A stretch of DNA of 64,000 nt, from positions 100,872 to 164,871 of the forward strand of contig CALGLP010000023.1 of NCBI GenBank assembly GCA_937930175.1, given 5' to 3'. A model generated the notes under the pieces. The model was not told where the DNA came from, did no database searches, and saw only the letters and a program-made list of their open reading frames with translations. The DNA comes from an uncultured bacterium. Its GTDB lineage: Bacteria > Omnitrophota > Gorgyraeia > Zapsychrales > Aceulaceae. Shown here in pieces: positions 51,418 through 64,000 of this stretch (within the stretch, counting starts at the first letter, position 1; every line of letters starts with the position of its first letter). The position numbers and the translations under genes are program-made.

Positions 51418-53034
51418 ATGATTTCTGTTAATAATGTTTCGTTGCAGTATGGCCAGCGCAAGCTTTTTGCCGGCGTGAACATTGTGTTCTCGTCGGGTAA
51501 TTGCTATGGGCTTATTGGAGCCAATGGCTCAGGGAAGTCGACATTCTTGAAGATCCTTTCGGGGGAAATTGAAACAACGACCGGCGAGGTCACTGTGGTC
51601 AAGGGCAAACGCGTTTCAATTCTAAAACAAGATCAGTTTGCCTTTGATGAGTTTTCTGTTCTGACAACCGTGATCATGGGGCACAAGCGGCTTTACGATA
51701 TTATGATGGAAAAAGAAGCGCTTTACGCCAAGGCGGATTTTTCTGACGCGGATGGGATGCGCATTGCGGACTTGGACCATGAGTTTTCTGAGCTTAACGG
51801 GTGGAACGCCGAGTCTGAGGCCTCACAGCTGTTAAGTCGGCTTGGCATCGGCGAAGACCTTTGTGCGTTGCCGATGAAACAGCTTGAGGCAGGGCAGAAG
51901 GTGCGCGTACTTTTAGCGCAGGCGCTGTTTGGCAATCCAGATATTTTACTTTTGGATGAGCCGACCAATCATTTGGATATTGAAACATGTATGTGGCTTG
52001 AAGAATTTTTGTGTGATTTTGAAAATACCGCGATCGTCGTCTCCCACGACCGCCATTTTCTCGATAAGGTCTGCACGCATATTGCGGATATTGATTTTGG
52101 CAAGATCCAGCTTTATCCCGGCAACTATGCCTTTTGGCAGGAGTCAAGCCAGCTGGCGCTGCGTCAACGCAGCGAGGCCAACAAAAAGATTGAAGAAAAG
52201 CGAAAAGAGCTCATGGATTTTATTGCGCGCTTTAGCGCCAATGCGTCAAAGGCCAAGCAGGCCACAAGCCGCAAAAAAAGCCTAGAGAAGCTTACCATTG
52301 AAGAAATTCGCCCATCGTCGAGAAAATATCCTTATGTTGGGTTTGACCAAGAGCGCGAAGCGGGCAACGACCTTTTGCATATCAACGGTTTGTCGAAATC
52401 CATTGACGGCCAAGTGATGTTTGAGAATTTAAATATGACGATTGAAAAAGGAGACAAGGTTGCTTTTGTGGGCCCCAACGATCTCGCCAAGACTCTGCTT
52501 TTCCAGATCCTGATGGAGGAGCTCAAGGCGGATAGCGGAGAGTTTAAGTGGGGTTTCTCGACCCGGCGCGCGTATTATCCTAAGGAGAATCTGAAGTATT
52601 TCGATAATGAATTGAATATCATTGATTGGCTCCGCCAGTTTTCGGATAATACGGACGAAAATTTTGTGCGCGGATTCTTAGGTCGTATGCTTTTTTCCGG
52701 GGATGAGACTTTTAAGCCTGTCAAGGTTCTCTCCGGCGGGGAAAAGGTGAGGTGTATGCTTGCGCGGATGATGCTTTTACGGGCGAATGTGTTGATCCTC
52801 GATGAGCCCACCAATCATTTAGATCTGGAATCGTTAACTGCCCTCAACCGTGGCCTTGAAAAATTTCGCGGTACGATCCTTTTTTCCTCCCACGACCATG
52901 AGCTTGTCCAAACCGTAGCCAACCGCATTGTTGAGATCACCCCTAAGGGCTACATTGACCTGGTTGGCACAACCTTTGATGAATATTTAGCTGATGAGAA
53001 GACCAGAGAACGGTTAAAAAAGATGTACGCATAA
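51418..53034 (+). CDS. ABC-F family ATPase (two ABC domains, no TMD; EttA/Uup-like)
   Basis: Two Walker A motifs (GANGSGKST, GPNDLAKT). Two signature motifs (LSGGEK variants). Two Walker B motifs (LLLDEPTNHLD, LILDEPTNHLD). Confidence 0.85.
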   Translation: MISVNNVSLQYGQRKLFAGVNIVFSSGNCYGLIGANGSGKSTFLKILSGEIETTTGEVTVVKGKRVSILKQDQFAFDEFSVLTTVIMGHKRLYDIMMEKEALYAKADFSDADGMRIADLDHEFSELNGWNAESEASQLLSRLGIGEDLCALPMKQLEAGQKVRVLLAQALFGNPDILLLDEPTNHLDIETCMWLEEFLCDFENTAIVVSHDRHFLDKVCTHIADIDFGKIQLYPGNYAFWQESSQLALRQRSEANKKIEEKRKELMDFIARFSANASKAKQATSRKKSLEKLTIEEIRPSSRKYPYVGFDQEREAGNDLLHINGLSKSIDGQVMFENLNMTIEKGDKVAFVGPNDLAKTLLFQILMEELKADSGEFKWGFSTRRAYYPKENLKYFDNELNIIDWLRQFSDNTDENFVRGFLGRMLFSGDETFKPVKVLSGGEKVRCMLARMMLLRANVLILDEPTNHLDLESLTALNRGLEKFRGTILFSSHDHELVQTVANRIVEITPKGYIDLVGTTFDEYLADEKTRERLKKMYA

Positions 53035-53069
53035 GCGTTACGTGTCGATCAGGGGTGTTATCTTTACCC

Positions 53070-53097
53070 TTGACGCCTGGAAGAGTTGGCCTATACT
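53070..53097 (+). promoter_or_regulatory. Candidate sigma70 promoter (TTGACG-N16-TATACT) upstream of the Arg/Ser-rich protein gene
   Basis: Near-consensus hexamers seen directly in the sequence, about 70 nt upstream of the ATG at 53170. Confidence 0.35.
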
Positions 53098-53169
53098 GAC
53101 GGTGCTATCGTTTGCATTCTTAAGCAAAATAATTTTAAAGTTATGAGTATTTAACGAAAGGAAGGCGAC

Positions 53170-53658
53170 ATGAGTGAAGAATTGAAGAATGAGGGTGTTC
53201 CCGTAATGCCCGAGACCCAAACAGATGTTGTTGCCATGATCAAAAAGATGCAGCAGCAATTAATTGCGCTCGATAAGAAGATCGAGATCTTGATGGGTCG
53301 GCCCAGAGAAAGTTCATTTGGGCATAAGCCTTACGCGCGACCATCTGGTTCTTTTAGTCGCCCTTCGTTTCATGGCAGAAGCGATCGTCGTCCGTCTGAC
53401 AGGGGAGAATATCGTCATGGCGGCCGATCATCTTTTGGCAGCCGCGATTCATTTCGCTCAGGAGAAACGCGGGAAGGTCATTTTAGAGAGCGAGATTCGA
53501 GGGAAGGTTCTTCGTTTGAGAAAAAACCGTATAGCAGCGCAAGGTCTTATCATGGCGGTGAGAGATCACGTAGCAGCGATAGGTCTCATGGTGGAGAACC
53601 GCGTGCCTTTGCATCCAAAAAGAAGCCATTCTTTCTAAAGCGCAAAGAACGGGAATAG
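53170..53658 (+). CDS. Arg/Ser/Gly-rich intrinsically disordered protein (162 aa) with a short N-terminal helical segment
   Basis: The C-terminal ~110 aa are low-complexity (SFGHKPYARPSGSFSRPSFHGRSDRRPSDRGEYRHGGRSSFGSRDSFRSGETREGHF...). RBS gaaaggaagg. Confidence 0.5.
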   Translation: MSEELKNEGVPVMPETQTDVVAMIKKMQQQLIALDKKIEILMGRPRESSFGHKPYARPSGSFSRPSFHGRSDRRPSDRGEYRHGGRSSFGSRDSFRSGETREGHFRERDSREGSSFEKKPYSSARSYHGGERSRSSDRSHGGEPRAFASKKKPFFLKRKERE

Positions 53659-54066
53659 GAAATAGGTAAAGATTTCATAGTCTGAAGGGAGGCCTTTTTA
53701 ATCGGTTCTTGTTGTTCATTGATACTATTATTAAGAATAGATGCGTGCGAAAAGTTTGCAGTAGGTCAAGACTTTGAAAATCAATCGTTTGGAGATGATC
53801 GACCGATCGTTCGCTAGGAAGTGGTTTAAGCATAAGCGAAGTCATTTCCTATGACTGAGGATAAAATGTTTGAAGAAAAGCCGAGACCTTCCGGCTAGGG
53901 CCTGCTAACTTTTACTCAAAGCGCGTCATGTTATCTGTGTATTTTCTTGTTAGATGCCTACTGTCACTCAATGTCCACTCAATCGTGGGCATTTTTTTTG
54001 TATTAATGCCGTTGGCGTAAGTCTGAGGATTTTCATATTGACAGGAAAATCTTTTTTGCTATTATA

Positions 54067-54085
54067 AACAGAAATCATTTCTATT
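54067..54085. promoter_or_regulatory. Fur-box-like inverted repeat (acAGAAATcATTTCTatt) immediately upstream of fur-family gene 1
   Basis: 6-1-6 palindrome overlapping the -10 / RBS region of the TTG-start fur-family gene at 54099. Confidence 0.45.
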
Positions 54086-54098
54086 TGAGGAGGCGCTA

Positions 54099-54515
54099 TT
54101 GGAACAGTATTTAGGGAAGCTAAAAGAAGGTGGTTTTAAGCTCACGCCGCGCAGGCAGGCGATCATTGAGCTTTTTGTTGATGGGAAGACTCATCTGACG
54201 CCGGAAGAGGCGTGGGAGGGGCTCAAGAAGCAGTTTGACCGGTGCGGGCTTCCCAGCGTGTACCGCAATCTTGAGAGTTTGGTTGAATGTGGAATATTAA
54301 CGAGGATCCAGCAGTTTGACCGCAAAAAGCATTACGGGTTATGTTCCGCGCTTCACGGCGATCATCACCATCATCACATCACCTGTATCAAGTGCGGGAA
54401 GGTCGATGAGATAAAAGACTGCGCGATTAATGAGGTTAAGAAGATCAAGGGGTATAAAGTCGTGAGTCATTTTATGCAGGTTAACGGGGTATGCGCCGGT
54501 TGCTCTAAAGAGTAA
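54099..54515 (+). CDS. Fur-family transcriptional regulator (Fur/Zur/PerR-type). TTG start.
   Basis: DNA-binding helix region LTPRRQAIIELF...PSVYRNLESLVECGIL. HHHHH plus CxxC...CxxC metal sites (ITCIKCG...CAGCS). RBS gaggagg precedes the TTG start. Confidence 0.8.
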   Translation: MEQYLGKLKEGGFKLTPRRQAIIELFVDGKTHLTPEEAWEGLKKQFDRCGLPSVYRNLESLVECGILTRIQQFDRKKHYGLCSALHGDHHHHHITCIKCGKVDEIKDCAINEVKKIKGYKVVSHFMQVNGVCAGCSKE

Positions 54516-54533
54516 AATTTTTTAATTTCTAAA

Positions 54534-54548
54534 TAGAAATGATTTCTA
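54534..54548. promoter_or_regulatory. Fur-box-like inverted repeat (TAGAAATgATTTCTA) upstream of the His/Cys-rich membrane protein gene
   Basis: Perfect 7-1-7 palindrome, related to the site at 54067. Confidence 0.45.
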
Positions 54549-54633
54549 CTTAAAATGTGTCAATATTGCGGGAATACTGGATTATGCGGGTTATTTTTTG
54601 GCACTGTCATGTTGAAATTAGGGCAATGGATAG

Positions 54634-55317
54634 TTGCATTATATAAAAGCCTCCGCAAGAAACCAAGAAAGGATCAATCAAATGCTCTTGAAAATAATAC
54701 ATGAATTAAAAGCGCACGCGCCATTTACTTTATTCGGCGCATTAACGGGTATCGTTTTGATGTTTGTTTTCCGCGGCATATCTCATGAAGCGGCTCATAA
54801 TTTCTTTTACATTTTTCACCCGCTGCATATCTGCTTAAGTGCTATCGTCACCGCTGCTATGTACAAGAGGTATCTTTCCAGCGAGCGCCCTGGGATTAAG
54901 CTATTTTTGAAAGTTCTAGTGGTTGGATATGTAGGATCGGTAACTGTTGGAACGTTAAGTGATTCTTTGATCCCGTTCTGGGGCGAATCGTTACTTCATA
55001 TGCCTCATCGGCATGTTCATATTGGTTTTGTCGAGAAATGGTGGCTGATCAATCCTCTTGCGGTATCGGCCATTGTTTTTGCCTATTTTAAGCCGGTGAC
55101 AAAATTCCCGCATGCCGGACATGTTCTTGTTAGCACGTGGGCATCGCTTTTTCATATGCTGATGGCCACCGACCATAGCCACAGTATTCCCTATTTGGGT
55201 ATATTTATTTTCTTGTTTCTAGCGGTGTGGATTCCGTGTTGTTTTAGCGATATTGTTTTTCCTTTGCTGTTTATACGTGACAAGAATGCCGTGATGGCCT
55301 GTGGGCATTGCAAATAA
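54634..55317 (+). CDS. His/Cys-rich polytopic membrane protein, probably metal-related
   Basis: Clusters HNFFYIFHPLH, HMPHRHVHIGF, HMLMATDHSHS. C-terminal ACGHCK. It sits between two Fur-family genes, behind a Fur-box-like site. Confidence 0.4.
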   Translation: MHYIKASARNQERINQMLLKIIHELKAHAPFTLFGALTGIVLMFVFRGISHEAAHNFFYIFHPLHICLSAIVTAAMYKRYLSSERPGIKLFLKVLVVGYVGSVTVGTLSDSLIPFWGESLLHMPHRHVHIGFVEKWWLINPLAVSAIVFAYFKPVTKFPHAGHVLVSTWASLFHMLMATDHSHSIPYLGIFIFLFLAVWIPCCFSDIVFPLLFIRDKNAVMACGHCK

Positions 55318-55348
55318 CGATTGAATTAAGAGAGAAGGAAAGATTGGC

Positions 55349-55834
55349 ATGAGGAAATGTTTAGGTTTTGTAGTTGTGATGCTTTTTTTATTGCAAAGTG
55401 TTTTAAGTAATATGGCATTCGCTCAGACATCGGTGTTTGATCTTGGGCAGGGGGTTGTTTCTAAGGAGTGGGATCAAGAAGAAAAGCTGACCATCGAAGA
55501 AAAAGAGAAGATCACGCAGAAGACCCTTAAGTCTCACAAGGTGGTTGACTTGGCTGAGATATTGCCCGATGAATTGATCGAGGCATTCATGATCCGCAAA
55601 AGCTGTTATGGCAATGAGGTAGGACTACGGGGTTTTACGAAAAGCAATTTACGTTTTACGTTAGATGATGCTTTAATCGAAGGTTCTTGCGGAAGCCGTA
55701 AAGACCCGCCGCTTTCACACATTAATATGCTTACGGTTAAAAGTTTAGAGGTTAAACAAGGGCCTTATGACGTCAGTGCTACTGGGACGCTGGGAGTTGA
55801 TATTAATGTTATTTCAAAAGATACTCAAAAATGA
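55349..55834 (+). CDS. Secreted protein of unknown function (161 aa)
   Basis: Signal peptide MRKCLGFVVVMLFLLQSVLSNMAFA. Confidence 0.4.
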   Translation: MRKCLGFVVVMLFLLQSVLSNMAFAQTSVFDLGQGVVSKEWDQEEKLTIEEKEKITQKTLKSHKVVDLAEILPDELIEAFMIRKSCYGNEVGLRGFTKSNLRFTLDDALIEGSCGSRKDPPLSHINMLTVKSLEVKQGPYDVSATGTLGVDINVISKDTQK

Positions 55835-55991
55835 GTGAAAAGATAAAGATAGAGTTGGATATTATGTTTATCTTTTATTTGTTTGCGAAGTAGTTTCTAA
55901 AGAATTTCTTTTGAATAATAAGAATAAGGCCGCTACAATTTTTTTAAAGATCGATATTGTTAAATGCCGTAAATCTGCGCAGGTAGGCTAA

Positions 55992-56687
55992 ATGATGAAC
56001 ACCTTACAAACAATCATTACGCAATCGCCTTTTCTGGCAATTGTTATTGTCTTTTGGGCTGGATTTGTTGCGTCTTTGAGTTCTTGCACGCTCGTCAGGA
56101 TCCCGATTGTTTTTGGATATGTTTCGGGGGCCTCCAACTCCAAGAAGCACTCTTTTTTATTGTCGCTATCTTTGGTCGCAGGCTTGGTTGTTAGTTATAC
56201 ACTGGTAGGAATACTGCTTATCTTTTTAAAGAATTTTGCGTCTCATCTGGTGCAAATGAGCAGGTACACGTATTTGGTGCTTGGAATTCTTTTGCTTGGC
56301 TCAGGCTTAGTTTATACTGGCCTTATCCCGACCAAGCATGCGCACGCGCAATGCCACACCAAGAATACGTTTAAAAAGTCTGGGTTTGTTGGCGCCTTTC
56401 TTTTTGGCCTGATGTTTGCATTTCTCGAGATGCCGGCTTGTCCTTGCTGCGCATCCGTACTTTTTGTGATCGTTGGCGTTGTGAGCTTGTGTGGTTCATG
56501 GGTTTATTCTTTTATTATTTTGTTAAGCTTTGCTCTTGGGCAAGGTTTGCCGATTCTTTTGATCGGGTCTTCGACAAGCTTAACGAAGATCTTGGCGCCT
56601 AAGATGGAGAGATTTGAAAAATATATTCAATTTATCGCGGGAACGATTTTGATCCTTATTGCTTCATACTTCTTTATTATCGCATAA
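55992..56687 (+). CDS. CcdA/DsbD-transmembrane-domain-like protein with paired Cys motifs
   Basis: Six TM segments. Cys in TM1 (FVASLSSCTLVRIP) and a CPCC motif (EMPACPCCASV). Confidence 0.45.
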   Translation: MMNTLQTIITQSPFLAIVIVFWAGFVASLSSCTLVRIPIVFGYVSGASNSKKHSFLLSLSLVAGLVVSYTLVGILLIFLKNFASHLVQMSRYTYLVLGILLLGSGLVYTGLIPTKHAHAQCHTKNTFKKSGFVGAFLFGLMFAFLEMPACPCCASVLFVIVGVVSLCGSWVYSFIILLSFALGQGLPILLIGSSTSLTKILAPKMERFEKYIQFIAGTILILIASYFFIIA

Positions 56688-56696
56688 AGGTGTTTA

Positions 56697-57275
56697 ATGA
56701 AAATACATCATCCTACTTGTAGTTGCGGACACGCTCACAAAATCCAATATCGATTATGGCACAAGTGGTTATTTGTCCTTTATGTTGTCGTCATAAGTTT
56801 CATCGCGATGAAGCCGTTGATCATCCGACAGCTTTCTACTCGTGCGTCTTCCTACATGACGTGCGCATTGTATCATGACGCGATACGTATTTATAAGAAG
56901 GCGATTCTTTTTGATAGGAAGAATGCTGTTCTCTGGGAAGATCTTGGATATGCGTATCAGGTCAGTGGAGATATCGAAAAGGCTAGCCAGGCTTATCGTG
57001 ATGCTCTTAGGGCTGATCCTAAAAGTAAAAGTGCTTACCTGAGCTTGGGAGCGATTTTCATGGCGCAAGAGCGATACAGGGAAGCCGTCTTGTGTTTTGA
57101 GTCAATACGACTGCTGGGGCCGGAAAACAAAAAAGATTTAGAGGTCAACGTTCTTGCCTATCATCGATCCGCCCTTCAGATGCTAGTTAAGTGTTATGAC
57201 GTCTTGGGTGAAGACCAGAAGAAAGAAGATGTTTTAAAAGACTTTAGGCGTTATTATCCAGAGAGTAACTTTTAA
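56697..57275 (+). CDS. TPR-repeat protein with N-terminal Cys/His cluster and one TM segment
   Basis: N-terminus HHPTCSCGHAH. TM WLFVLYVVVISFIAM. TPR repeats AVLWEDLGYAYQVSGDIEKASQAYRDAL. Confidence 0.45.
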   Translation: MKIHHPTCSCGHAHKIQYRLWHKWLFVLYVVVISFIAMKPLIIRQLSTRASSYMTCALYHDAIRIYKKAILFDRKNAVLWEDLGYAYQVSGDIEKASQAYRDALRADPKSKSAYLSLGAIFMAQERYREAVLCFESIRLLGPENKKDLEVNVLAYHRSALQMLVKCYDVLGEDQKKEDVLKDFRRYYPESNF

Positions 57276-57896
57276 GTGATCAAGCTGATGGCTAAGGATT
57301 TCTTTCTGATGAGAAATAAAATGATCCGTTTTGTGAAATATGTGATCGTCGTGATGGTTGTCTTTTTCTTGGCGAGTAAGAAGCTGCTCCCGGTGCGACC
57401 GCTCCCATTTGTCAATTTTACCCGTGCAGCCTTTGCGGAAATTCCTGATGATAAGAAAGTATATTCATTAGACATAAGCAAGCTTGAGAAGATCCAGAAC
57501 GAGTTGACGCGGGAGGGAGATGATATCACTGGGTTTCCTATTGATATTTTGGCGCTGCATGGCAAGAAAGTAAAAATTACAGGATATCTTTTGATACCTT
57601 ATGACGCTTATCTTGCTGACGGCAAGTCTCTTGACAGCTTTGCCGTTGGAAAGAATGCTTATGGATGCCCATGCTGTGATTGGGGCAATAGCCCGCCGCC
57701 AACGATATTTAATACAGTTTTTGTTAAGACAAAAGAAGGGGAGAAGCTAAGCCCGCCTTTTAAGCCCTTAGTTGAGGTCACGGGAATATTTTCCGCTCAC
57801 CGAGAATATTTTGTGGACGAGGACGGCGTTAAGCAACTCTCCGGATTGTTTTTCATTCAAGACGCAGAAGCTACGACTAGAAACAAATGGTTCTAG
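57276..57896 (+). CDS. Membrane-anchored hypothetical protein with CPCC motif
   Basis: N-terminal TM (FVKYVIVVMVVFFLA). Motif YGCPCCDWG. Confidence 0.4.
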   Translation: MIKLMAKDFFLMRNKMIRFVKYVIVVMVVFFLASKKLLPVRPLPFVNFTRAAFAEIPDDKKVYSLDISKLEKIQNELTREGDDITGFPIDILALHGKKVKITGYLLIPYDAYLADGKSLDSFAVGKNAYGCPCCDWGNSPPPTIFNTVFVKTKEGEKLSPPFKPLVEVTGIFSAHREYFVDEDGVKQLSGLFFIQDAEATTRNKWF

Positions 57897-57967
57897 CACT
57901 TCTTTAAAGTTGCCTTCCTATCTTGCTTTCAAAATAATTATTGACAAATCCTGCTTGGTGATTATAC

Positions 57968-57990
57968 TTGATAATGAAAATCATTTCCAT
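57968..57990. promoter_or_regulatory. Fur box-like site (ttGATAATGAAAATCATTtcc) upstream of fur-family gene 2
   Basis: Matches 15 of 19 positions of the classical GATAATGATAATCATTATC Fur box. It lies 15 nt upstream of the ATG at 58005. Confidence 0.5.
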
Positions 57991-58004
57991 AAAGGAGAAT
58001 TCTA

Positions 58005-58478
58005 ATGTCAAGGGGTAATTGTCAGGGACAGGGTTGGTGGCATGGGAAGTTCAGGGGTTGCGGGTATCGGCTCACTCTAGGTCGCGAGGCGATCCTTGAT
58101 GTTTTGTCTAAAACGGATGATCATTTAAGCGCTGAGGATATCTATATGAAGATCCATCCCAAGCATCCGGGGGTAGGGTTAACAACGATTTATCGCACCT
58201 TGGATGTATTATCAAATCTTGGGATGGTTTACAAGCTTGATTTTGGAGACGGGAGAGCCCGTTATGAATTTGCTGAGGGACCTAAGGGTGCGCATCATCA
58301 TCACCACTTGGTCTGCACGGAATGTGGGAGAGTTGTTGAATATACTGATTTTATAGATGAAGAAATGGAGCTTCTTAAGCAAACTGAGGATGGGCTTTCT
58401 AAAAAGTATCATTTTAAGATTACGAATCATCTCATACAGTTTTATGGTTTATGTCAAGAATGTAACGGCAAGAAATAA
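58005..58478 (+). CDS. Fur-family transcriptional regulator, second copy (possibly PerR-like)
   Basis: Helix region LSAEDIYMKIHPKHPGVGLTTIYRTLDVLSNLGMVY. HHHHH and CTECG...CQEC metal sites. Confidence 0.8.
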   Translation: MSRGNCQGQGWWHGKFRGCGYRLTLGREAILDVLSKTDDHLSAEDIYMKIHPKHPGVGLTTIYRTLDVLSNLGMVYKLDFGDGRARYEFAEGPKGAHHHHHLVCTECGRVVEYTDFIDEEMELLKQTEDGLSKKYHFKITNHLIQFYGLCQECNGKK

Positions 58479-58501
58479 TTAATTTTTTTTTCATTCTTAG
58501 T

Positions 58502-58514
58502 GAAAATGATTTCC
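58502..58514. promoter_or_regulatory. Fur-box-like half-palindrome (GAAAATGATTTCC) upstream of the DUF5320 gene
   Basis: Shares the core AAATSATTT with the other three sites. Confidence 0.4.
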
Positions 58515-58539
58515 AATAAAAAGAAAGGAGACGATTGCA

Positions 58540-58875
58540 ATGCCAAATAAAGACGGAACAGGCCCTATGGGGCAAGGTGCGATGACGGGAAGAGGAAATG
58601 GGTATTGTGTTGTACCGCTTAATAGAGAAAATGGTAGGATTTTTGATGGAGGTGGTTTTTATGGCAGAGGTGGAGGGAGGGGAAGGCGTAATTGTTTTTA
58701 CGCGACTAATCTTCCGGGATGGATGAGGGGTCAAGGAGGCGGGCAGGCGTTTGGCGGCTTTGGAAGAGTAATGTCCAAGGAAGATGAGCTAGCGGCCCTT
58801 AAAAATAAAGTTGTTTATCTTAAAGAGGAGCTTGAAGCTGTTCAGGGGCGTGTTCAGGTCTTAGAAAGTAAATAA
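58540..58875 (+). CDS. DUF5320-like Gly-rich small protein with C-terminal coiled-coil
   Basis: N-terminus MPNKDGTGPMGQGAMTGRGNGYC. C-terminal coiled-coil (ELAALKNKVVYLKEELEAVQGRVQVLE). Confidence 0.55.
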   Translation: MPNKDGTGPMGQGAMTGRGNGYCVVPLNRENGRIFDGGGFYGRGGGRGRRNCFYATNLPGWMRGQGGGQAFGGFGRVMSKEDELAALKNKVVYLKEELEAVQGRVQVLESK

Positions 58876-58921
58876 AAAGAAAGAAAATAGTTATTATAGC
58901 GTTTCACTAAAAAAGGAGTTT

Positions 58922-59305
58922 GTGCTTATGAGAGTCGGAGTCGTACTAGAGGATGAGTCGGGTGTGCAGGGCAATGTTTGTGCACATTTTGGTCAGTGTA
59001 AGTTTTTTTTCTTAGCGGATATTGACAAGGAAAAGAAGAAAATTATTAGTACGCGTATTGTGCCTAATACTGTTTCTCACGGGGGAGGCGGATGCGTCGC
59101 TGTTGATGAGATATTAAAGCATAAGGTTACTCATGTCATTGCCGGAGGAATGGGTGGTGGCGCTCAGCAGAAGTTTGCGCAAGCAGGCGTGCAGGTGTTT
59201 GGTTATTCTGGCAATGTGCAGAAAGCCTTGGATGATTTTATGAATAACACGTTGGGCGGCCTTAATGCGTGTAAAGATCACGGCCATGCCGGAGAATGTC
59301 ATTAA
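58922..59305 (+). CDS. Dinitrogenase FeMo-cofactor-binding family (Nitro_FeMo-Co; NifB C-terminal / NifX-like) small protein
   Basis: Family pattern VCAHFGQCKFFFLADID ... THVIAGGMGGGAQQKFAQAGVQV. Confidence 0.6.
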   Translation: MLMRVGVVLEDESGVQGNVCAHFGQCKFFFLADIDKEKKKIISTRIVPNTVSHGGGGCVAVDEILKHKVTHVIAGGMGGGAQQKFAQAGVQVFGYSGNVQKALDDFMNNTLGGLNACKDHGHAGECH

Positions 59306-59322
59306 GCAAAGGAGATGCCAAA

Positions 59323-60015
59323 ATGGAAAATGTAACGGACGCTGTAAATCGAATTCCGCTCATTGGCGAAAAAGCTCCAGCCTTTGAAGCAGATACGACT
59401 CAGGGTAAAATTAAGTTTCCTGATGATTATAAAGGAAAATGGGTGATTTTATTTAGCCATCCGGCAGACTTTACCCCGGTGTGCACCACGGAGTTTATGA
59501 CGTTTGCGGCCATGGAAAAAGAATTTGAAGCTCTCAATTGTAAGCTTATTGGCTTGTCTATTGATAGCCATTATAGCCATATCGCATGGTTAAGAACAAT
59601 CAAGGAAAAGATTGAATATAAGGGCATGAAGAACGTTGAGATAAAGTTTCCGGTTATCGCGGATGTTAAAATGGATGTTGCTCATAAGTTTGGGATGGTT
59701 CAGCCTGCCGCTAGTGATATTAGTCCGGTCCGCGCTGTGTTTTTTATGGATCCGGAGGCTAAGGTCAGGGCGATGGTTTTTTATCCATCATCGATGGGGC
59801 GAAATTTTCAGGAAATCAAGCGCATGATCATCGCGATGCAGACTGCGGATACCTATAAAGTGGCGACTCCCGCTGATTGGCAACCCGGCGATGATGTGAT
59901 TGTGCCACCTCCGGGAAGTTGCGGCATGGCTAAGGATAGGGTTGATAATGCTCAAAAAGAAGGTATTAAATGTCTTGATTGGTTTATGTGCTTAAAGCCG
60001 CTTAAGCTTAAGTAA
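59323..60015 (+). CDS. Peroxiredoxin (AhpC/TSA family, Prx6-like 1-Cys type)
   Basis: Peroxidatic Cys motif FTPVCTTEF. Motif HIAWLRT. RBS aaaggaga before the ATG at 59323. Confidence 0.85.
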   Translation: MENVTDAVNRIPLIGEKAPAFEADTTQGKIKFPDDYKGKWVILFSHPADFTPVCTTEFMTFAAMEKEFEALNCKLIGLSIDSHYSHIAWLRTIKEKIEYKGMKNVEIKFPVIADVKMDVAHKFGMVQPAASDISPVRAVFFMDPEAKVRAMVFYPSSMGRNFQEIKRMIIAMQTADTYKVATPADWQPGDDVIVPPPGSCGMAKDRVDNAQKEGIKCLDWFMCLKPLKLK

Positions 60016-60035
60016 TGTGAGGAAGGAAGGGTGTT

Positions 60036-60413
60036 ATGAAAATATGTATTACGTCGGAAGGGAAAACGTTGGATTCCAAGGTCGATCCTCGCTTCGGCCG
60101 GTGTCAGTATTTCATTTTTTTTGATATGGATGCCGGTTCTTTTGAAGTTCAAGAGAACACTAGCGCTCAGTTTCAAGGAGGAGCCGGTATTCAATCAGGC
60201 CAGTTTGTCGTATCCAAAGGTGTCCAAGCCGTGCTTACGGGAAATGTTGGGCCTAACGCGCATCAGGTGTTATCGGCCGCAGGGATTAGTATAATGACCG
60301 GAGTTTCTGGAACGGTAAAAGATGTTATTGCAGCGTATAAAAAAGGAGAACTGAAGGCGGCTTCCGGTCCAAGCGTCGGTTCGCATTTTGGTATGCCCAG
60401 CAAGAATAAATAG
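60036..60413 (+). CDS. Second Nitro_FeMo-Co family small protein
   Basis: DPRFGRCQYFIFFDMD ... VQAVLTGNVGPNAHQVLSAAGISI. Confidence 0.6.
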   Translation: MKICITSEGKTLDSKVDPRFGRCQYFIFFDMDAGSFEVQENTSAQFQGGAGIQSGQFVVSKGVQAVLTGNVGPNAHQVLSAAGISIMTGVSGTVKDVIAAYKKGELKAASGPSVGSHFGMPSKNK

Positions 60414-60423
60414 GAGGTGTAGG

Positions 60424-60594
60424 ATGCCTTATGGTCAAGGTTGTGGAAAAATGAATGGAAATCGTCAGGGTTCTGGGCCTGGGGGAAATTGTGTTTGCCC
60501 AAAATGCGGGGAACGCATTTCGCATCAGCAGGGAGTACCTTGTTATGAAGTGAATTGCCCTAAATGTGGGACAAAAATGGTCCGAGAGCAATAA
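60424..60594 (+). CDS. Gly-rich small zinc-ribbon protein (two CPKCG motifs)
   Basis: MPYGQGCGKMNGNRQGSGPGGNCVCPKCGERISHQQGVPCYEVNCPKCGTKMV. The Gly-rich N-terminus resembles the DUF5320 protein. The start at 60424 has RBS taggaggtg. Confidence 0.5.
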   Translation: MPYGQGCGKMNGNRQGSGPGGNCVCPKCGERISHQQGVPCYEVNCPKCGTKMVREQ

Positions 60595-61207
60595 CGTGGA
60601 TAAAGAAATTCTAGAAAATTTTGAGCGATATTTAGAGCGCAAAGCTCTCTATAAAAGTTTTGGCTACGACGTAGATCAGGAGAGGGGATTTGTTCTTGAG
60701 CAAGCTAAGCCACTTATGGGGAAGATCCTTGAGGCTGGAACAGGAAAGGGACATTTTGCGCTTGCTTTGGCTAAGGCCGGGTATTCGTTTGTGACTTTTG
60801 ATATCTCAGCGCAGGAGCAGCATTTCGCAAGATTAAATATCGCGCATTTTGGTTTTGAAAAACAGGTTGACTTTAAAATTGAAAATGGCGAGCACACAAG
60901 TTTTATTAGCGGTAGTTTTGATGTTATTTTTTCGGTTAATGTTCTTCATCATCTGCATCATCCTTATATGGTTCTTGATGAGTTCATCCGAATACTTTCT
61001 CCAGCTGGAAAAATAGTTTTAGCTGATTTTACTGAAAAAGGATTTCGTATGATGGAAAAGATTCACGCTTCTGAGGGCAATGCCCATGAGGTGGGGAGCG
61101 TGGCACTGGATGATGTCAAAAAATATTTTTTAGAAAAACATTTTATTGTCAACGAAGCGCAGACTGATTATCAACGTGTTATTGTTGCCTCCCAAGGAAG
61201 TGCTTAG
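60566..61207 (+). CDS. Class I SAM-dependent methyltransferase
   Basis: Motif I ILEAGTGKGHFALALAKAGY. Acidic post-I FDIS. The true start may be the GTG at 60596, directly after the upstream stop. Confidence 0.7.
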   Translation: MGQKWSESNNVDKEILENFERYLERKALYKSFGYDVDQERGFVLEQAKPLMGKILEAGTGKGHFALALAKAGYSFVTFDISAQEQHFARLNIAHFGFEKQVDFKIENGEHTSFISGSFDVIFSVNVLHHLHHPYMVLDEFIRILSPAGKIVLADFTEKGFRMMEKIHASEGNAHEVGSVALDDVKKYFLEKHFIVNEAQTDYQRVIVASQGSA

Positions 61208-61210
61208 AGC

Positions 61211-62065
61211 ATGATCATTTCAGTGGCAAGCGGAAAAGGCGGTACAGGAAAGACAACGATTGCGGTCAATTTGGCGTTATCTCTTGGCAGCGTTCAATTT
61301 CTTGATTGTGATGTTGAAGAGCCTAACGCGCAGATATTCTTGAAAGCGCGTATAACCGGCGATAAGAAAGCCTTTGTTCTTGTGCCTAAGGTCGACGAAG
61401 ATAAATGCATTTATTGCGGTCAATGTCGCGAGGTTTGCGCTTATAACGCTATTGCTGTTTTGCCTGGAAGTGGCGGGGCAAAGGGAAAGATTCTTGTTTT
61501 TCCTTATCTTTGTCACGGATGCGGCGCGTGCAGCTTGTTTTGTCCTCAAGGAGCAATAAAGGAAGTTCACAAGGAGATCGGCCTGATCGAAGTTGGTGAT
61601 AAAGACGAAATACAGTTTGTCCACGGCCGCCTTAATATCGGCGAGACCATGTCGCCGCCGCTGATCCGACAGGTTAAAGAATATATCAATCCTACAAGGA
61701 CGGTTATTATTGACGCGCCACCAGGAACATCGTGTCCGGTTATTACAGCCGTGAAGGGAAGTGATTTTTGTATCTTGGTCACGGAGCCGACACCTTTTGG
61801 GTTGAACGATCTTATCCTGGCGGTTGAGGTTTTAAAGAAAATAGAGATACCTTTTGGCGTTATTATTAATCGCGCGGACATCGGTGACCATGGTGTTGAA
61901 CTATATTGTCAAGAAAATAATATTCCGATTTTGATGCGCATCCCTTTTGACCGAGAGATCGCTAAATTATATTCAAACGGTACGCCATTGATCGTCAAAA
62001 AACCGGAGTATATCGCGCAGTTTAAAGATATGTTTAATCTGATCACAAAAGGGTTATCGGCATGA
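61211..62065 (+). CDS. MinD/ParA-superfamily P-loop ATPase with inserted 2x[4Fe-4S] ferredoxin domain
   Basis: Deviant Walker A SGKGGTGKTT. Ferredoxin Cys clusters CIYCGQCREVCAYNAI and CHGCGACSLFCPQGAI. Confidence 0.75.
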   Translation: MIISVASGKGGTGKTTIAVNLALSLGSVQFLDCDVEEPNAQIFLKARITGDKKAFVLVPKVDEDKCIYCGQCREVCAYNAIAVLPGSGGAKGKILVFPYLCHGCGACSLFCPQGAIKEVHKEIGLIEVGDKDEIQFVHGRLNIGETMSPPLIRQVKEYINPTRTVIIDAPPGTSCPVITAVKGSDFCILVTEPTPFGLNDLILAVEVLKKIEIPFGVIINRADIGDHGVELYCQENNIPILMRIPFDREIAKLYSNGTPLIVKKPEYIAQFKDMFNLITKGLSA

Positions 62066-62517
62066 GACTTGTTCCCATCGGCGTCATTCACACCCCGTTT
62101 AAATGTAAAAAAGAAACGCCTATCCAGCCGTTTAAATCAAAAGCAGTCGGCACTGTTGAAGTCTTTAGCAAGTACGCAGAAGGCTTAAGCGATGTTGAAG
62201 GTTTTTCGCATGTGCTGCTGGTTTACCGATTTCATAAGTCAAAAGGATATAAGTTAAAAACGAGGCCATTTCTTGATAAATGTGAGAGAGGTATTTTTTC
62301 ATGTCGCTATCCTCGCAGGCCAAATCAGATCGGGATCAGTGTTGTTAAATTATTGCGCAGGGATAAGAATATTTTAACCGTTAAGCAAGTCGACATGCTA
62401 GACGGGACACCTCTTTTAGATATCAAATCTTACAATCCGCACTTTGATCCTAAAAAGGGGATTAAGGTTGGCTGGTATAAGAATGTCATGAAAGCTATTC
62501 CTCACAAGGAGATATAA
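62062..62517 (+). CDS. TsaA/YaeB-family SAM-dependent methyltransferase (UPF0066)
   Basis: N-terminal IGVIHTPF motif. The ~150-aa size fits. Its start overlaps the upstream stop (ATGA). Confidence 0.7.
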   Translation: MRLVPIGVIHTPFKCKKETPIQPFKSKAVGTVEVFSKYAEGLSDVEGFSHVLLVYRFHKSKGYKLKTRPFLDKCERGIFSCRYPRRPNQIGISVVKLLRRDKNILTVKQVDMLDGTPLLDIKSYNPHFDPKKGIKVGWYKNVMKAIPHKEI

Positions 62518-62521
62518 TTTT

Positions 62522-63303
62522 ATGCTTGAAGGTGCCATTTTGTTGGCAAGCGCGATTGTTGCGGGGATTTTAGGCGGACTTCTGGGGATAGGCGGGGCGT
62601 GATTATCATGCCAGTCCTGTGTTTTGTCTTTGACGTATCAACACCATTTGCGGCAGGAACAACAGCGCTGGCAGTTTTCTTTACGACCTTAAGCGGCGGA
62701 TACAAACATATTAGATTAGGGCATGTCGATATAAAATCGTTGGCGCCTATCATGATCGCAGGTGCCATATCGACAGCATTTTTTTCTTATCTGTTTATAT
62801 TTATGGCTCAGAAACCTATGTGGCTTGATCTGGGAGTAGGATGTATTTTTCTTTTTATCTCTCTTCGTATGGCTTATGAAGGTATCGTTAGAGGTAAAGA
62901 AGCGCAAGAGGTAAAGGATCAGTCTATAAAAGGCATGTCCACGGTAAAAATATTTATTGGAATCGTCTCAGGTGTACTTCCAGGCCTTTTTGGTATCGGA
63001 ACAGGTGCTGTGCTTGTTCCCGCATTTAATTATTGTCTCAAGAGCCCCATTAAGGTGGCTATTGGTTCTTCACTGGCCTGTTTCGCGGTGAACGCTTTGA
63101 TCAGTTCAGCGTTTAAGTTTTTTCAAGGTTTTGTGTTGTTGGATAAAGCACTTATTCTTTGCGCAGGAACAGTCCTTGGTGCATCTATAGGAGCCAAGCT
63201 GAACAAAGGATTTCCTCCATCATTATTGAAACTTTTGTTTGGCTTAGTATTTTTATATGTTTCTTTTAAGTATATTTTTCTTTTTTGGGGAGTGAAGGTT
63301 TAA
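62522..63303 (+). pseudogene. TSUP (TauE/SafE, DUF81) family membrane transporter disrupted by a -1 frameshift in a G4 run
   Basis: A 26-codon ORF (MLEGAILLASAIVAGILGGLLGIGGA*) carries TM1 and the GxGGG motif. The family continues in another frame from 62599 (VIIMPVLCF...). One extra G in ggcgggg would give the contiguous ...GIGGGVIIMPVL. Confidence 0.5.
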
Positions 63304-64000
63304 TGAAAACGTTGTTAGTCATTAGCGGAAAAGGCGGAACAGGCAAGACCGTTGTTACGGCTTCGTTTGCCGCTTTAGCCAAAAACAAGGTCATGGTCGA
63401 TTGCGACGTCGACGCGGCAGACTTGCATCTTTTGCTTCATCCTGTGATTAAAGAGCGTCATGCATTTAGAAGCGGCCAAAGCGCGGTCATTGATAATTTA
63501 CTTTGTAAGAAATGTGGCAAATGCGCGTCAGTGTGCAGATTTGCAGCCATTAAAGCTGATTATACGGTTGAGCATTTTTCCTGCGAGGGGTGCGGACTTT
63601 GTCGTCGTGTGTGTCCTCAGGGTGCAATACATATGGAAGAAAATGTTGCCGGGGAGTGGTTTGTCTCGGAGATAAAGCATGGCCCTTTTGTGCATGCCAA
63701 GCTTGGTATCGCCCAGGAGAATTCAGGTAAGCTCGTGGCAAAGATCAGACAGGTTGCCAAAGAATTGGCCGAGCAACAAGCCCTTGATTATGTCATTATC
63801 GACGGGCCGCCGGGCATAGGATGTCCGGTGATCGCCTCGCTCTCAGGCGTTGATTGCGCTCTGATCGTGACGGAGCCAACGCTTTCGGGCTTGCATGACG
63901 CCAAGCGTGTGGTAGAAGTTGCAAAGCATTTTAATATTCCAGCCAAGCTTGTCATCAATAAATATGATTTAAATTTAACAATGACGGGGATGATCGAGGA
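63303..64000 (+). CDS. Second MinD-type P-loop ATPase with 2x[4Fe-4S] ferredoxin insert. 3' partial; it continues beyond the window.
   Basis: SGKGGTGKT Walker A. CKKCGKCASVCRFAAI and CEGCGLCRRVCPQGAI. The frame is open to nt 64000. Confidence 0.75.
   Translation, partial: MKTLLVISGKGGTGKTVVTASFAALAKNKVMVDCDVDAADLHLLLHPVIKERHAFRSGQSAVIDNLLCKKCGKCASVCRFAAIKADYTVEHFSCEGCGLCRRVCPQGAIHMEENVAGEWFVSEIKHGPFVHAKLGIAQENSGKLVAKIRQVAKELAEQQALDYVIIDGPPGIGCPVIASLSGVDCALIVTEPTLSGLHDAKRVVEVAKHFNIPAKLVINKYDLNLTMTGMIE

Follow-up and report, generated by a model that had tools for sequence, protein, structure and literature searches.

We observed two neighbouring gene units in a 64-kb stretch of DNA from an uncultured bacterium of the Omnitrophota (contig CALGLP010000023.1; the whole stretch is called the window below), each headed by a gene for a Fur-family regulator, fur1 or fur2, with one operator-like site in front of the regulator gene and a second one behind it. 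The four sites, S1 to S4, fall into two distinct classes, and we put the chance at about three in four that they mark two independent, self-repressing Fur-family units that are neighbours in this genome, one run by a Zur-like Fur1 and the other by Fur2, together with an operon for iron-sulfur (Fe-S) carriers. In this model, Fur1 would bind S1, over the transcription start of its own sigma-70-type promoter, and S2, after its own stop codon and ahead of probable zinc-acquisition genes. Fur2 would bind its own palindrome at the equivalent relative positions, S3 and S4. The metal-bound repressor would occupy its boxes, and on metal loss it would leave and the unit would be transcribed; Fur2 might also be released by iron-mediated peroxide oxidation. 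The components are standard Fur-family parts and do not make up a new kind of regulatory system. They do provide operator motifs and outlines of regulons, the first of their kind, for two Fur-family regulators of Omnitrophota and neighbouring uncultivated phyla.

Four operator-like sites at two regulator genes

Positions are those within the window, and the sites and gene layout were read from letters 53500-60500. The core of S1 (AGAAATCATTTCT) lies at 54070-54082, that of S2 (TAGAAATGATTTCTA) at 54534-54548, that of S3 (GATAATGAAAATCATTTCC) at 57970-57988 and that of S4 (GAAAATGATTTCC) at 58502-58514. An earlier note on this DNA had listed four Fur-box-like operators here. All are present, S2 and S4 with the starts that it gave and S1 and S3 shifted by 2-3 bases from its starts of 54067 and 57968, and they appear to fit the Fur-family operator type. 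Its placement of the sites is likewise borne out: S1 is located 5' of fur1 (54099..54515, + strand), S2 between fur1 and the gene for a His/Cys-rich membrane protein, S3 5' of fur2 (58005..58478, + strand) and S4 between fur2 and a DUF5320 gene that starts at 58540.

Exact copies of GAAATNATTTC occur twice in 64 kb, with 0.33 expected, and GAAAATNATTTCC is found in the window only twice. The core AAATSATTT occurs 10 times, with 3.9 expected, and none of 100 shuffles reached 10. Scans that allowed up to two mismatches (AGAAATNATTTCT, GAAAATNATTTCC) did no better than chance; discrimination comes only from the exact cores and from 21-bp matrices. We built these matrices from related loci, designated by L numbers below; homologues bear the names of metagenome-assembled genomes (MAGs) of Candidatus Omnitrophota. 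The Fur1 set comprises 29 loci with orthologues at 53-92% identity (352 kb of Fur1-type loci scanned), mostly Omnitrophota, with the rest labelled Elusimicrobia, Auribacterota, Fischerbacteria, Desulfatiglandales and 'Thiomargarita'. The Fur2 set comprises 80 metagenome loci with orthologues at 80-87% identity (856 kb scanned). Hits were called at 16 bits or more for the Fur1 matrix, derived from 26 sites upstream of fur1 orthologues, and at 17 bits or more for the Fur2 matrix, derived from 75 distinct orthologous sites with none from the window. This design counts against the model to some extent: the Fur1 matrix was trained on upstream sites of the very loci scanned, which leaves 16 internal or other hits and S2 of the window as its only independent hits, and the Fur2 matrix was trained on orthologous sites, with the window sites alone being independent.

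With their own matrix, S1 and S2 score 29.2 and 26.2 bits (Fur1) and S3 and S4 score 26.8 and 28.6 bits (Fur2). The runner-up positions of the window reach 13.0 and 7.9 bits for the Fur1 and Fur2 matrix, respectively, and the top scores in 200 simulated 64-kb windows are 23.7 and 21.4 bits. By these scores the four sites lie far above chance.

The two top sigma-70-type matches of the region stop 0 nt short of the box at S1 and 3 nt short of that at S3. The fur1-unit promoter (54038..54065, + strand) reads TTGACA-16-TATTAT and the fur2-unit promoter (57941..57968, + strand) TTGACA-16-TATACT, each with 11 of 12 consensus matches. The full Zur-type box at S1, AAACAGAAATCATTTCTATTT (54066..54086), begins directly 3' of the -10 hexamer and spans the position where transcription is predicted to start, and the full Fur2-type box at S3, TAATGAAAATCATTTCCATAA (57972..57992), begins 3 nt 3' of its -10 hexamer. 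Orthologues of fur1 carry a promoter TTGACA...TATAAT in the equivalent upstream place, and those of fur2 carry TTGACA-17-TATATT with the box after 3-4 nt. An AT-rich box of the 7-1-7 type overlapping a promoter, including that of the regulator itself, is found at both S1 and S3 and is kept in the orthologues. This layout, well backed by its conservation, suggests autoregulation, which the earlier note had proposed for S1, and does so for S3 as well. The internal sites have full boxes too, AAATAGAAATGATTTCTACTT of Zur type at S2 (54531..54551) and TAGTGAAAATGATTTCCAATA of Fur2 type at S4 (58498..58518).

Two box classes, each with its own regulator gene

The 9-11 bp core shared by the four sites masks two distinct 21-bp boxes. 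S1 and S2 are copies of the palindrome AAAyAGAAAT-n-ATTTCTrTTT, and S3 and S4 of TAATGrAAAT-s-ATTTyCAwTA. The boxes of Fur1 orthologues read AAATAGAAAT-n-ATTTCTATTT, at once 3' of the promoter, and those of Fur2 orthologues read TAATGGAAAy-s-ATTTTCATTA. The contrast lies in the heptamer, TAGAAAT versus TG(G/A)AAAT, and in the outer flanks, AAA versus TAA. Scored with the matrix of the other class, S1, S2, S3 and S4 drop to 3.7, 7.9, 7.2 and 5.2 bits. Mean scores over the related loci are 27.2 bits (own matrix) and -1.8 bits (other matrix) for Fur1-type sites, and 28.3 and 8.9 bits, respectively, for Fur2-type sites.

Fur1 (138 amino acids) and Fur2 (157 amino acids) both match PF01475 (E 1.5e-27 and 1.4e-32) well above its gathering score, and each matches 25-26 solved Fur-family structures. 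Both carry the HHHHH motif and the CxxC motifs pointed out in the earlier note; there are two CxxC motifs in each protein, forming the structural Zn site, and the four Cys are invariant in both alignments. Recognition helix 4 reads YRNL in 120/120 Fur1-type proteins and YRTL in 118/118 Fur2-type proteins, a difference that matches the heptamer contrast of the boxes.

The box classes are conserved along with the regulator genes. The Fur1 box is found at the regulator's promoter in 25 of 29 orthologous loci. In three of the remaining four it heads znuABC-zur (zur denotes the fur1 orthologue), and in L013 a weaker, sub-threshold match is located there. Twelve related loci have an internal box of the same type past the stop codon of zur. 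The Fur2 box is present in 72 orthologous upstream regions of sufficient length. In 79 orthologous loci it recurs 3' of the fur2 stop codon, where 10-25 nt separate it from the ribosome-binding site of the DUF5320 gene. The single local regulon that the earlier note had drawn from the four related sites finds no support in these data: the classes do not cross-score, each accompanies its own regulator gene over ~30 (Fur1) and ~80 (Fur2) related loci, and the fur1 and fur2 units adjoin in only 3 of ~110 loci (L006, L011 and L059).

Fur2 and the adjoining Fe-S carrier operon

The operon behind S4 (58540..63971, + strand throughout) was annotated by Pfam and NCBIfam hits. It encodes a DUF5320 protein (58540-58875), a first NifX-like protein (58928-59305; PF02579), a 1-Cys peroxiredoxin (59323-60015), a second NifX-like protein (60036-60413; PF02579), a Zn-ribbon protein (60424-60594), an S-adenosylmethionine (SAM) methyltransferase (60566-61207), a MinD/Mrp-type 4Fe-4S ATPase (61211-62065), TrmO (62062-62517), TauE (62599-63303) and a second MinD-type ATPase (from 63318), which was found by tblastn. 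The ATPases belong to PF10609/PF01656 plus Fer4. The core conserved in ~36 loci is DUF5320, NifX, NifX, (Zn-ribbon), methyltransferase, MinD, MinD, and in the window TrmO and TauE are inserted ahead of the second ATPase.

Among the 856 kb of related loci, all but one of the 155 Fur2-matrix hits of at least 17 bits are located either 5' of fur2 or immediately behind it, and the boxes behind fur2 precede DUF5320 and once a Zn-ribbon gene. The regulon of Fur2 would consist of fur2 itself and this one operon. The exception, at L069 340-412, is a second fur2 promoter with operator and ribosome-binding site, followed by a 17-codon open reading frame (ORF), ~2.6 kb 5' of the genuine fur2. By its appearance it is either a decayed gene or a second copy of the regulatory module that arose by duplication.

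As in the orp operons of Desulfovibrio vulgaris, small Nitro_FeMo-Co (ORP-like) proteins and MinD/Mrp-type Fe-S ATPases occur here together, and a dedicated regulator has this cluster alone as its probable regulon. The hits to the MrpORP model NF041136 in the operon are partial and below cut-off, and the DUF5320, methyltransferase and Zn-ribbon genes are additional. OrpR, a dedicated redox-sensing sigma-54 activator, controls the orp operons and nothing else (PMC8359166, PMC6345978); it is an enhancer-binding protein with a [4Fe-4S] PAS domain that acts together with sigma-54 and IHF. We saw no sign of sigma-54/OrpR control in the Fur2 unit, where the promoters are of sigma-70 type, the regulator belongs to a family of repressors and no gene for an enhancer-binding protein is among the annotated operon genes. 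Another parallel in logic is the suf operon for Fe-S assembly, which Fur represses in E. coli. There, as proposed here, a Fur-family repressor holds Fe-S biogenesis or delivery off until iron is scarce or oxidants appear; the Fur2 operon differs in having no SufBCD or SufS and in having a dedicated regulator, not a global one.

Fur2 itself is probably a repressor of Fe(II) or Mn type that recognizes DNA in the manner of Fur. Among solved structures, Fur proteins come closest to it (9ire, 113.8 bits; C. jejuni Fur, 95 bits), ahead of B. subtilis PerR (79 bits), and its top NCBIfam model is Bacillus Fur. The core of its box, TGrAAATsATTTyCA, retains the TG of the Fur heptamer; it is related to TGATAATnATTATCA and is off the Bacillus Fur heptamer by one position per half-site. 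Both marks of a strict Fur, a Fur-related box and an Arg in helix 4 (YRTL in 118/118 orthologues), are found. No iron-uptake genes (feo, siderophore or haem) lie under the Fur2 box in the 856 kb of related loci. Across orthologues the N-terminal arm WWHGKFRGCGYR, which includes one Cys, hardly varies. A two-Cys metal site in this arm was considered and ruled out, since only C19 is conserved and C6 is variable.

The clues to the effector of Fur2 conflict, which is a second point against the model: overall similarity and helix 4 indicate Fur, and a conserved Asp indicates PerR, with a Glu in its place in the window. At the position in question, that of PerR D104, peroxide-sensitive PerR has Asp, and Fur, Zur, Mur and Nur have Glu (PMC4866751, PMC8638967). 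Of 120 Fur2 orthologues, 116 carry Asp there ('VIDYTD'), and the window protein carries Glu ('VVEYTD'; residue 112, 58338-58340). A PerR-like peroxide response is plausible for the Fur2 clade and less likely for the window copy, which, with its Glu and its acquired peroxiredoxin, may respond differently from its relatives. Whether Fur2 is a true PerR, iron-loaded and inactivated by H2O2, with the operon as a peroxide-stress response, can be weighed on the same data, and we consider this possible at clearly less than even odds. Like B. subtilis PerR (2fe3), most Fur2 orthologues have the Asp and all have the equivalents of His37, His91 and His93 (H40 and H98-H101, invariant), and the analogous Desulfovibrio orp operons are redox-controlled (PMC8359166). 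The sign of that control is opposite to that of PerR, however, as oxidation makes OrpR turn the orp genes off (PMC8359166). Besides the Glu of the window copy, Fur2 departs from PerR in a Glu at the PerR-D85 position, in the Fur-type TG of its box, in its closer similarity to Fur among both solved structures and NCBIfam models, and in helix 4, where Arg is the Fur type and Asn the PerR type (PMC8638967, citing Caux-Thang 2015).

A PerR regulon would hold catalase, AhpCF or MrgA in place of an Fe-S carrier operon, and none of the genes of the conserved operon core is a peroxide-defence gene. The 1-Cys peroxiredoxin adds some weight to PerR in the window and in three other loci (L071, L091 and L111), and is absent from 34 of 37 related operons; it is a sporadic insertion. 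The earlier note's proposal of a PerR-like peroxide signal, for which it cited the downstream peroxiredoxin, is no more than half right in the case of Fur2: the Asp of the orthologues and the presence of the peroxiredoxin in the window operon agree with it, and the window Glu, the helix-4 Arg and the rarity of the peroxiredoxin among related operons do not.

Internal boxes behind the regulator genes

Both internal boxes are preceded by a T-run. One follows the fur1 stop codon (54518..54523, + strand) and ends 7 nt before S2; the other follows the fur2 stop codon (58483..58491, + strand) and ends 6 nt before S4. Behind zur, the 7-nt distance of the window is shared by 9 of 12 orthologous internal sites and recurs in L009, where the internal Zur box follows a methyltransferase gene. 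Behind fur2, 68 of 69 distinct orthologous sites share the 6-nt distance. On inspection, no convincing -35 element of an internal promoter was seen at S2 or S4. Since no internal promoter was seen, we suppose that the internal box works on transcription that started at the upstream promoter. With a repressor bound 6-7 bp past the U-tract, RNA polymerase would be halted there, and the regulator could retain basal, self-limited expression as the structural genes stay off. The geometry of T-run and box suggests such a roadblock role for S2 and S4.

Most Fur2 orthologues have a terminator-like hairpin of 12-13 bp across the fur2 stop codon, with the T-run as its tail and arms AAAAATGTAGCGG and CCGCTATATTTTT on either side of a loop (L053 6454-6485 and equivalents). 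Its energy is -12 to -16 kcal/mol, with z about -4 to -6, compared to -1.3 for the window stretch, and pairing is kept in 84% of the cells of the alignment versus 30-61% in slid controls. Two results here tell against the roadblock role: the window (58455-58497) keeps the T-run without the 3' arm of the hairpin, and covariation in the hairpin, over the alignment at the fur2 stop codon, is not above shuffles. We found no consistent hairpin ahead of the T-run after zur, and a search of 53000-64000 with Rfam gave no RNA family at E <=0.1.

A weak internal promoter with the conserved TATATT is a live alternative and also weighs against the roadblock. S2 and S4 would then be ordinary operators of separate internal promoters with no roadblock, which we regard as a real possibility that falls well short of an even chance. 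The TATATT, identical to the -10 element of the fur2 promoter, lies 11 nt 5' of the internal Fur2 box in orthologues, where it doubles as the 3' arm of the hairpin, and inspection of the orthologues showed no -35-like hexamer 16-18 nt from the -10-like elements. The window has ATGTCA-17-AATAAT with 9 of 12 matches, ending at 58479, and a TAAAAT overlaps the zur stop codon. Behind S2 there is no room for a leader, as a small ORF begins 3 nt past the box, and the 6-7 nt that separate T-run and box are unlike a -10 element. In favour of internal promoters, the operon would go untranscribed without them if fur2 is followed by a terminator.

Two further readings, which we put forward jointly, appear rather unlikely as a pair. 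In the first, S2 and S4 would be repressor-assisted terminators, the bound repressor stalling polymerase on the U-tract and thereby causing termination, a design common to two paralogous systems. In the second, Fur2 would form a Fur subfamily of its own, marked by the PerR-type Asp combined with the Fur-type helix-4 Arg, by the invariant WWHGKFRGCGYR arm and by the one-operon regulon. If the latter were true, Fur2 would take the role in redox control in Omnitrophota that the unrelated OrpR has in Desulfovibrio.

Fur1 as a probable Zur-type regulator

Fur1 is most likely a zinc-sensing Zur, a reading that we base on a conserved Cys in the regulatory site, on boxes that head zinc-uptake genes and on a DUF3299 protein related to a member of the Vibrio Zur regulon. 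The Cys lies in 'HYGLCSA', which aligns with 'YRRCSE' and 'YRRCST', the sites of C76 in M. tuberculosis Zur (sequence verified against 2o03) and C79 in S. coelicolor Zur. It is present in 110/110 Fur1 orthologues and absent from the Fur2, PerR and Fur proteins in the alignment. An S-donor Cys in the regulatory site is a signature of Zur, with C84 of B. subtilis Zur among the examples (PMC4866751).

In the 352 kb of Fur1-type loci, 42 Fur1-matrix hits of at least 16 bits were found, all 0-49 nt 5' of a gene start and on the strand of zur, and each heads either zur or genes for metal uptake. Among the latter are binding proteins of ZnuA type (PF01297, E 6e-84 and 8e-72) with His/Asp/Glu-rich loops, followed by ZnuC and ZnuB. 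The box lies directly 5' of znuA in L021, L022 and L034 and 5' of an operon containing znuA in L006, L010 and L025, and znuA is located directly 3' of fur1 in L016, L019, L026, L027, L028, L032 and L033. An OprB-type porin stands behind a box ahead of znuABC. TonB-dependent receptors of 685-695 amino acids, followed by ExbB, ExbD and TonB, are found behind boxes in L009 and L024 and 3' of zur in L023. The other genes directly behind Fur1 boxes encode a small Cys peptide, MCQYCGNTGLCG, the His-rich membrane protein and a DsbD/TPR/DUF3299-like trio. The 64-kb window has no znuABC; its Fur1-side genes are those for the membrane protein and the trio and a receptor remnant.

The first of the window genes behind S2 is a small conserved ORF, MCQYCGNTGLCG... 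(54555..54704, + strand, 49 amino acids), which overlaps the 5' end of the membrane protein gene, has one predicted transmembrane helix and gave no family match. Homologues occur right after a Zur box or after zur in L008, L012, L014, L020 and L021, and by its sequence it is a conserved small Cys-rich membrane peptide. The His/Cys-rich membrane protein (54682..55317, + strand, 211 amino acids) has no Pfam or NCBIfam match and 7410 homologues (E <=1e-5), every one named 'hypothetical'. Its invariant residues include E8, H12, H46, H49, D94, E102, H113, H144, H147, H158, C186 and D190. An AlphaFold2 model has six long helices (pLDDT 87), and a Foldseek comparison with the PDB gave no fold match, with a best E of 0.44. 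Because of its place behind Zur boxes or zur, which is shared by L013, L017, L018, L030, L031 and L059, this protein is a candidate new zinc or metal transporter.

The next ORF (55349..55834, + strand, 161 amino acids) encodes the N-terminus of a TonB-dependent receptor, with signal peptide and a hit to the plug domain. As the rest is missing in the window, we take it for a gene remnant. The trio follows on the same strand, with Pfam matches: a DsbD/CcdA-like membrane protein (55992-56687), a TPR membrane protein with an N-terminal Cys/His cluster MKIHHPTCSCGHAHK (56697-57275) and a DUF3299-like secreted CPCC protein that carries YGCPCCDWG (57276-57896). No Zur box was found ahead of the DsbD gene (55835-55991, best 2.2 bits). 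In related loci the trio follows zur (L011, L012) or a Zur box with znuABC next (L025). ZrgE, a DUF3299 protein, belongs to the Zur-regulated zrgABCDE operon of Vibrio (PMC9817125). The trio may be a thiol-dependent module for periplasmic metal handling.

Several features do not sit well with a zinc-sensing Fur1. It has a His ('KTHLTP', 110/111 orthologues) equivalent to PerR His37, which is atypical of Zur proteins, as these typically have no His at that position (PMC4866751). It carries Thr where actinobacterial Zur proteins have an Asp ligand, the NCBIfam models put it closer to Fur and PerR than to E. coli Zur, and the nearest model of the box-headed receptor is that of a TonB-dependent copper receptor, below cut-off. 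The same His, a ligand in Fur as well as PerR, and the copper receptor would suit an iron, manganese or copper sensor of Fur/Mur type whose operons import that metal, as would the top NCBIfam model for Fur1, Bacillus Fur, the slightly better match of the ZnuA-like protein of L032 to the MntC model (below cut-off) and a DUF2946-like protein that adjoins the receptor in L023. Such a sensor is nevertheless improbable. The Zur-type Cys is invariant, and the ZnuA proteins bear long His/Asp/Glu-rich loops, e.g. HDHDEEEEGGHHHHGGKDPH, that are typical of zinc-specific binding proteins. For the ZnuA of L021 the nearest models are those of the zinc proteins AdcA and AztC, the 352 kb contain no feo, siderophore or haem genes behind a Fur1 box, and the DUF3299-like protein matches a member of a Zur regulon (PMC9817125). 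The metal signal of Fur/Zur/Nur type in the earlier note is consistent with a Zur-like Fur1, by its Cys and the boxes at znuABC; the integration of two signals in one local regulon finds no support.

Near the Zur unit, at L018 3126-3542 and L024 11290-11700, lies yet another member of the Fur family, a distant paralogue that shares 23-28% identity with Fur1 and Fur2. These lineages have at least three Fur-family regulators.

Comparison with known systems

The fur1 unit resembles the Zur/znuABC systems of M. tuberculosis (Zur/FurB, 2o03), S. coelicolor (3mwm) and B. subtilis in the Fur fold, the Cys4 structural site, the Cys of the regulatory strand, the AT-rich palindrome of 7-1-7 type over the promoter, the probable autoregulation and a putative regulon of ZnuABC, TonB-dependent receptors and a DUF3299 protein. 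It differs in keeping the His37-type ligand, in the absence of the actinobacterial Asp ligand, in the second box right after the regulator gene and in a regulon with an unclassified His-rich membrane family. Its box core, TAGAAATnATTTCTA, is also unlike the described Zur boxes, which are of the TCGTAATnATTACGA type in Bacillus, the TGAAAATnATTTTCA type in actinobacteria and the GTTATAnTATAAC type in gammaproteobacteria.

The boxes of B. subtilis Fur, PerR and Zur reportedly differ at one or two positions per half-site, and Fur1 and Fur2 would be kept apart in the same way, by one or two bases per half-site of related 7-1-7 palindromes. Here, in uncultivated Omnitrophota, the two units are adjacent and each has a promoter box and an internal box. 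The earlier note's model, taken as four variants of one operator that both paralogues bind, with metal and peroxide signals integrated, is very unlikely: it can draw on the 9-bp core AAATSATTT common to all sites, on a few orthologous Fur2 boxes that score 17-20 bits with the Fur1 matrix and on cross-talk that is said to occur among Fur paralogues in Bacillus, but the window cross-scores of 3.7-7.9 bits are not above the best by chance (simulated mean best 6.7-11.0), the discriminating positions (TAGAAAT versus TGrAAAT, AAA versus TAA) are conserved per class over ~110 loci, the recognition helices differ consistently and the units are mostly not adjacent.

Our literature search on DUF5320 and on Fur or zinc regulation in Omnitrophota found nothing relevant. 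Beyond this phylum, the Zur-type box is found in MAGs of Elusimicrobia, Auribacterota, Fischerbacteria and Desulfatiglandales, and both motifs can be used at once for the annotation of metal-responsive genes in thousands of MAGs. New on the Fur1 side is the placement of an unclassified membrane family (>7000 members, no Pfam match) in a probable zinc regulon as a candidate zinc transporter. On the Fur2 side it is a putative Fur-family regulator that is dedicated to an orp-like Fe-S carrier operon and combines signatures of Fur and PerR. The DUF5320/NifX-like/MinD cluster of anaerobes, which is poorly understood, would thereby be tied to a repressor that senses metal or oxidants. The combination of a promoter box with a box after the stop codon, behind a T-run, is also new and may offer a simple means of uncoupling expression of the repressor from that of its targets.

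Upstream sequences

Upstream of the fur1 unit, 53170-53658 encodes a 162-amino-acid Arg/Ser/Gly-rich low-complexity protein with no family match. The following ~380 nt (53659-54037) contain no + strand ORF of at least 60 amino acids; a minus-strand ORF of 56 amino acids is present at 53675-53845. A terminator-like hairpin at 53970-53993 closes this stretch just 5' of the zur promoter.

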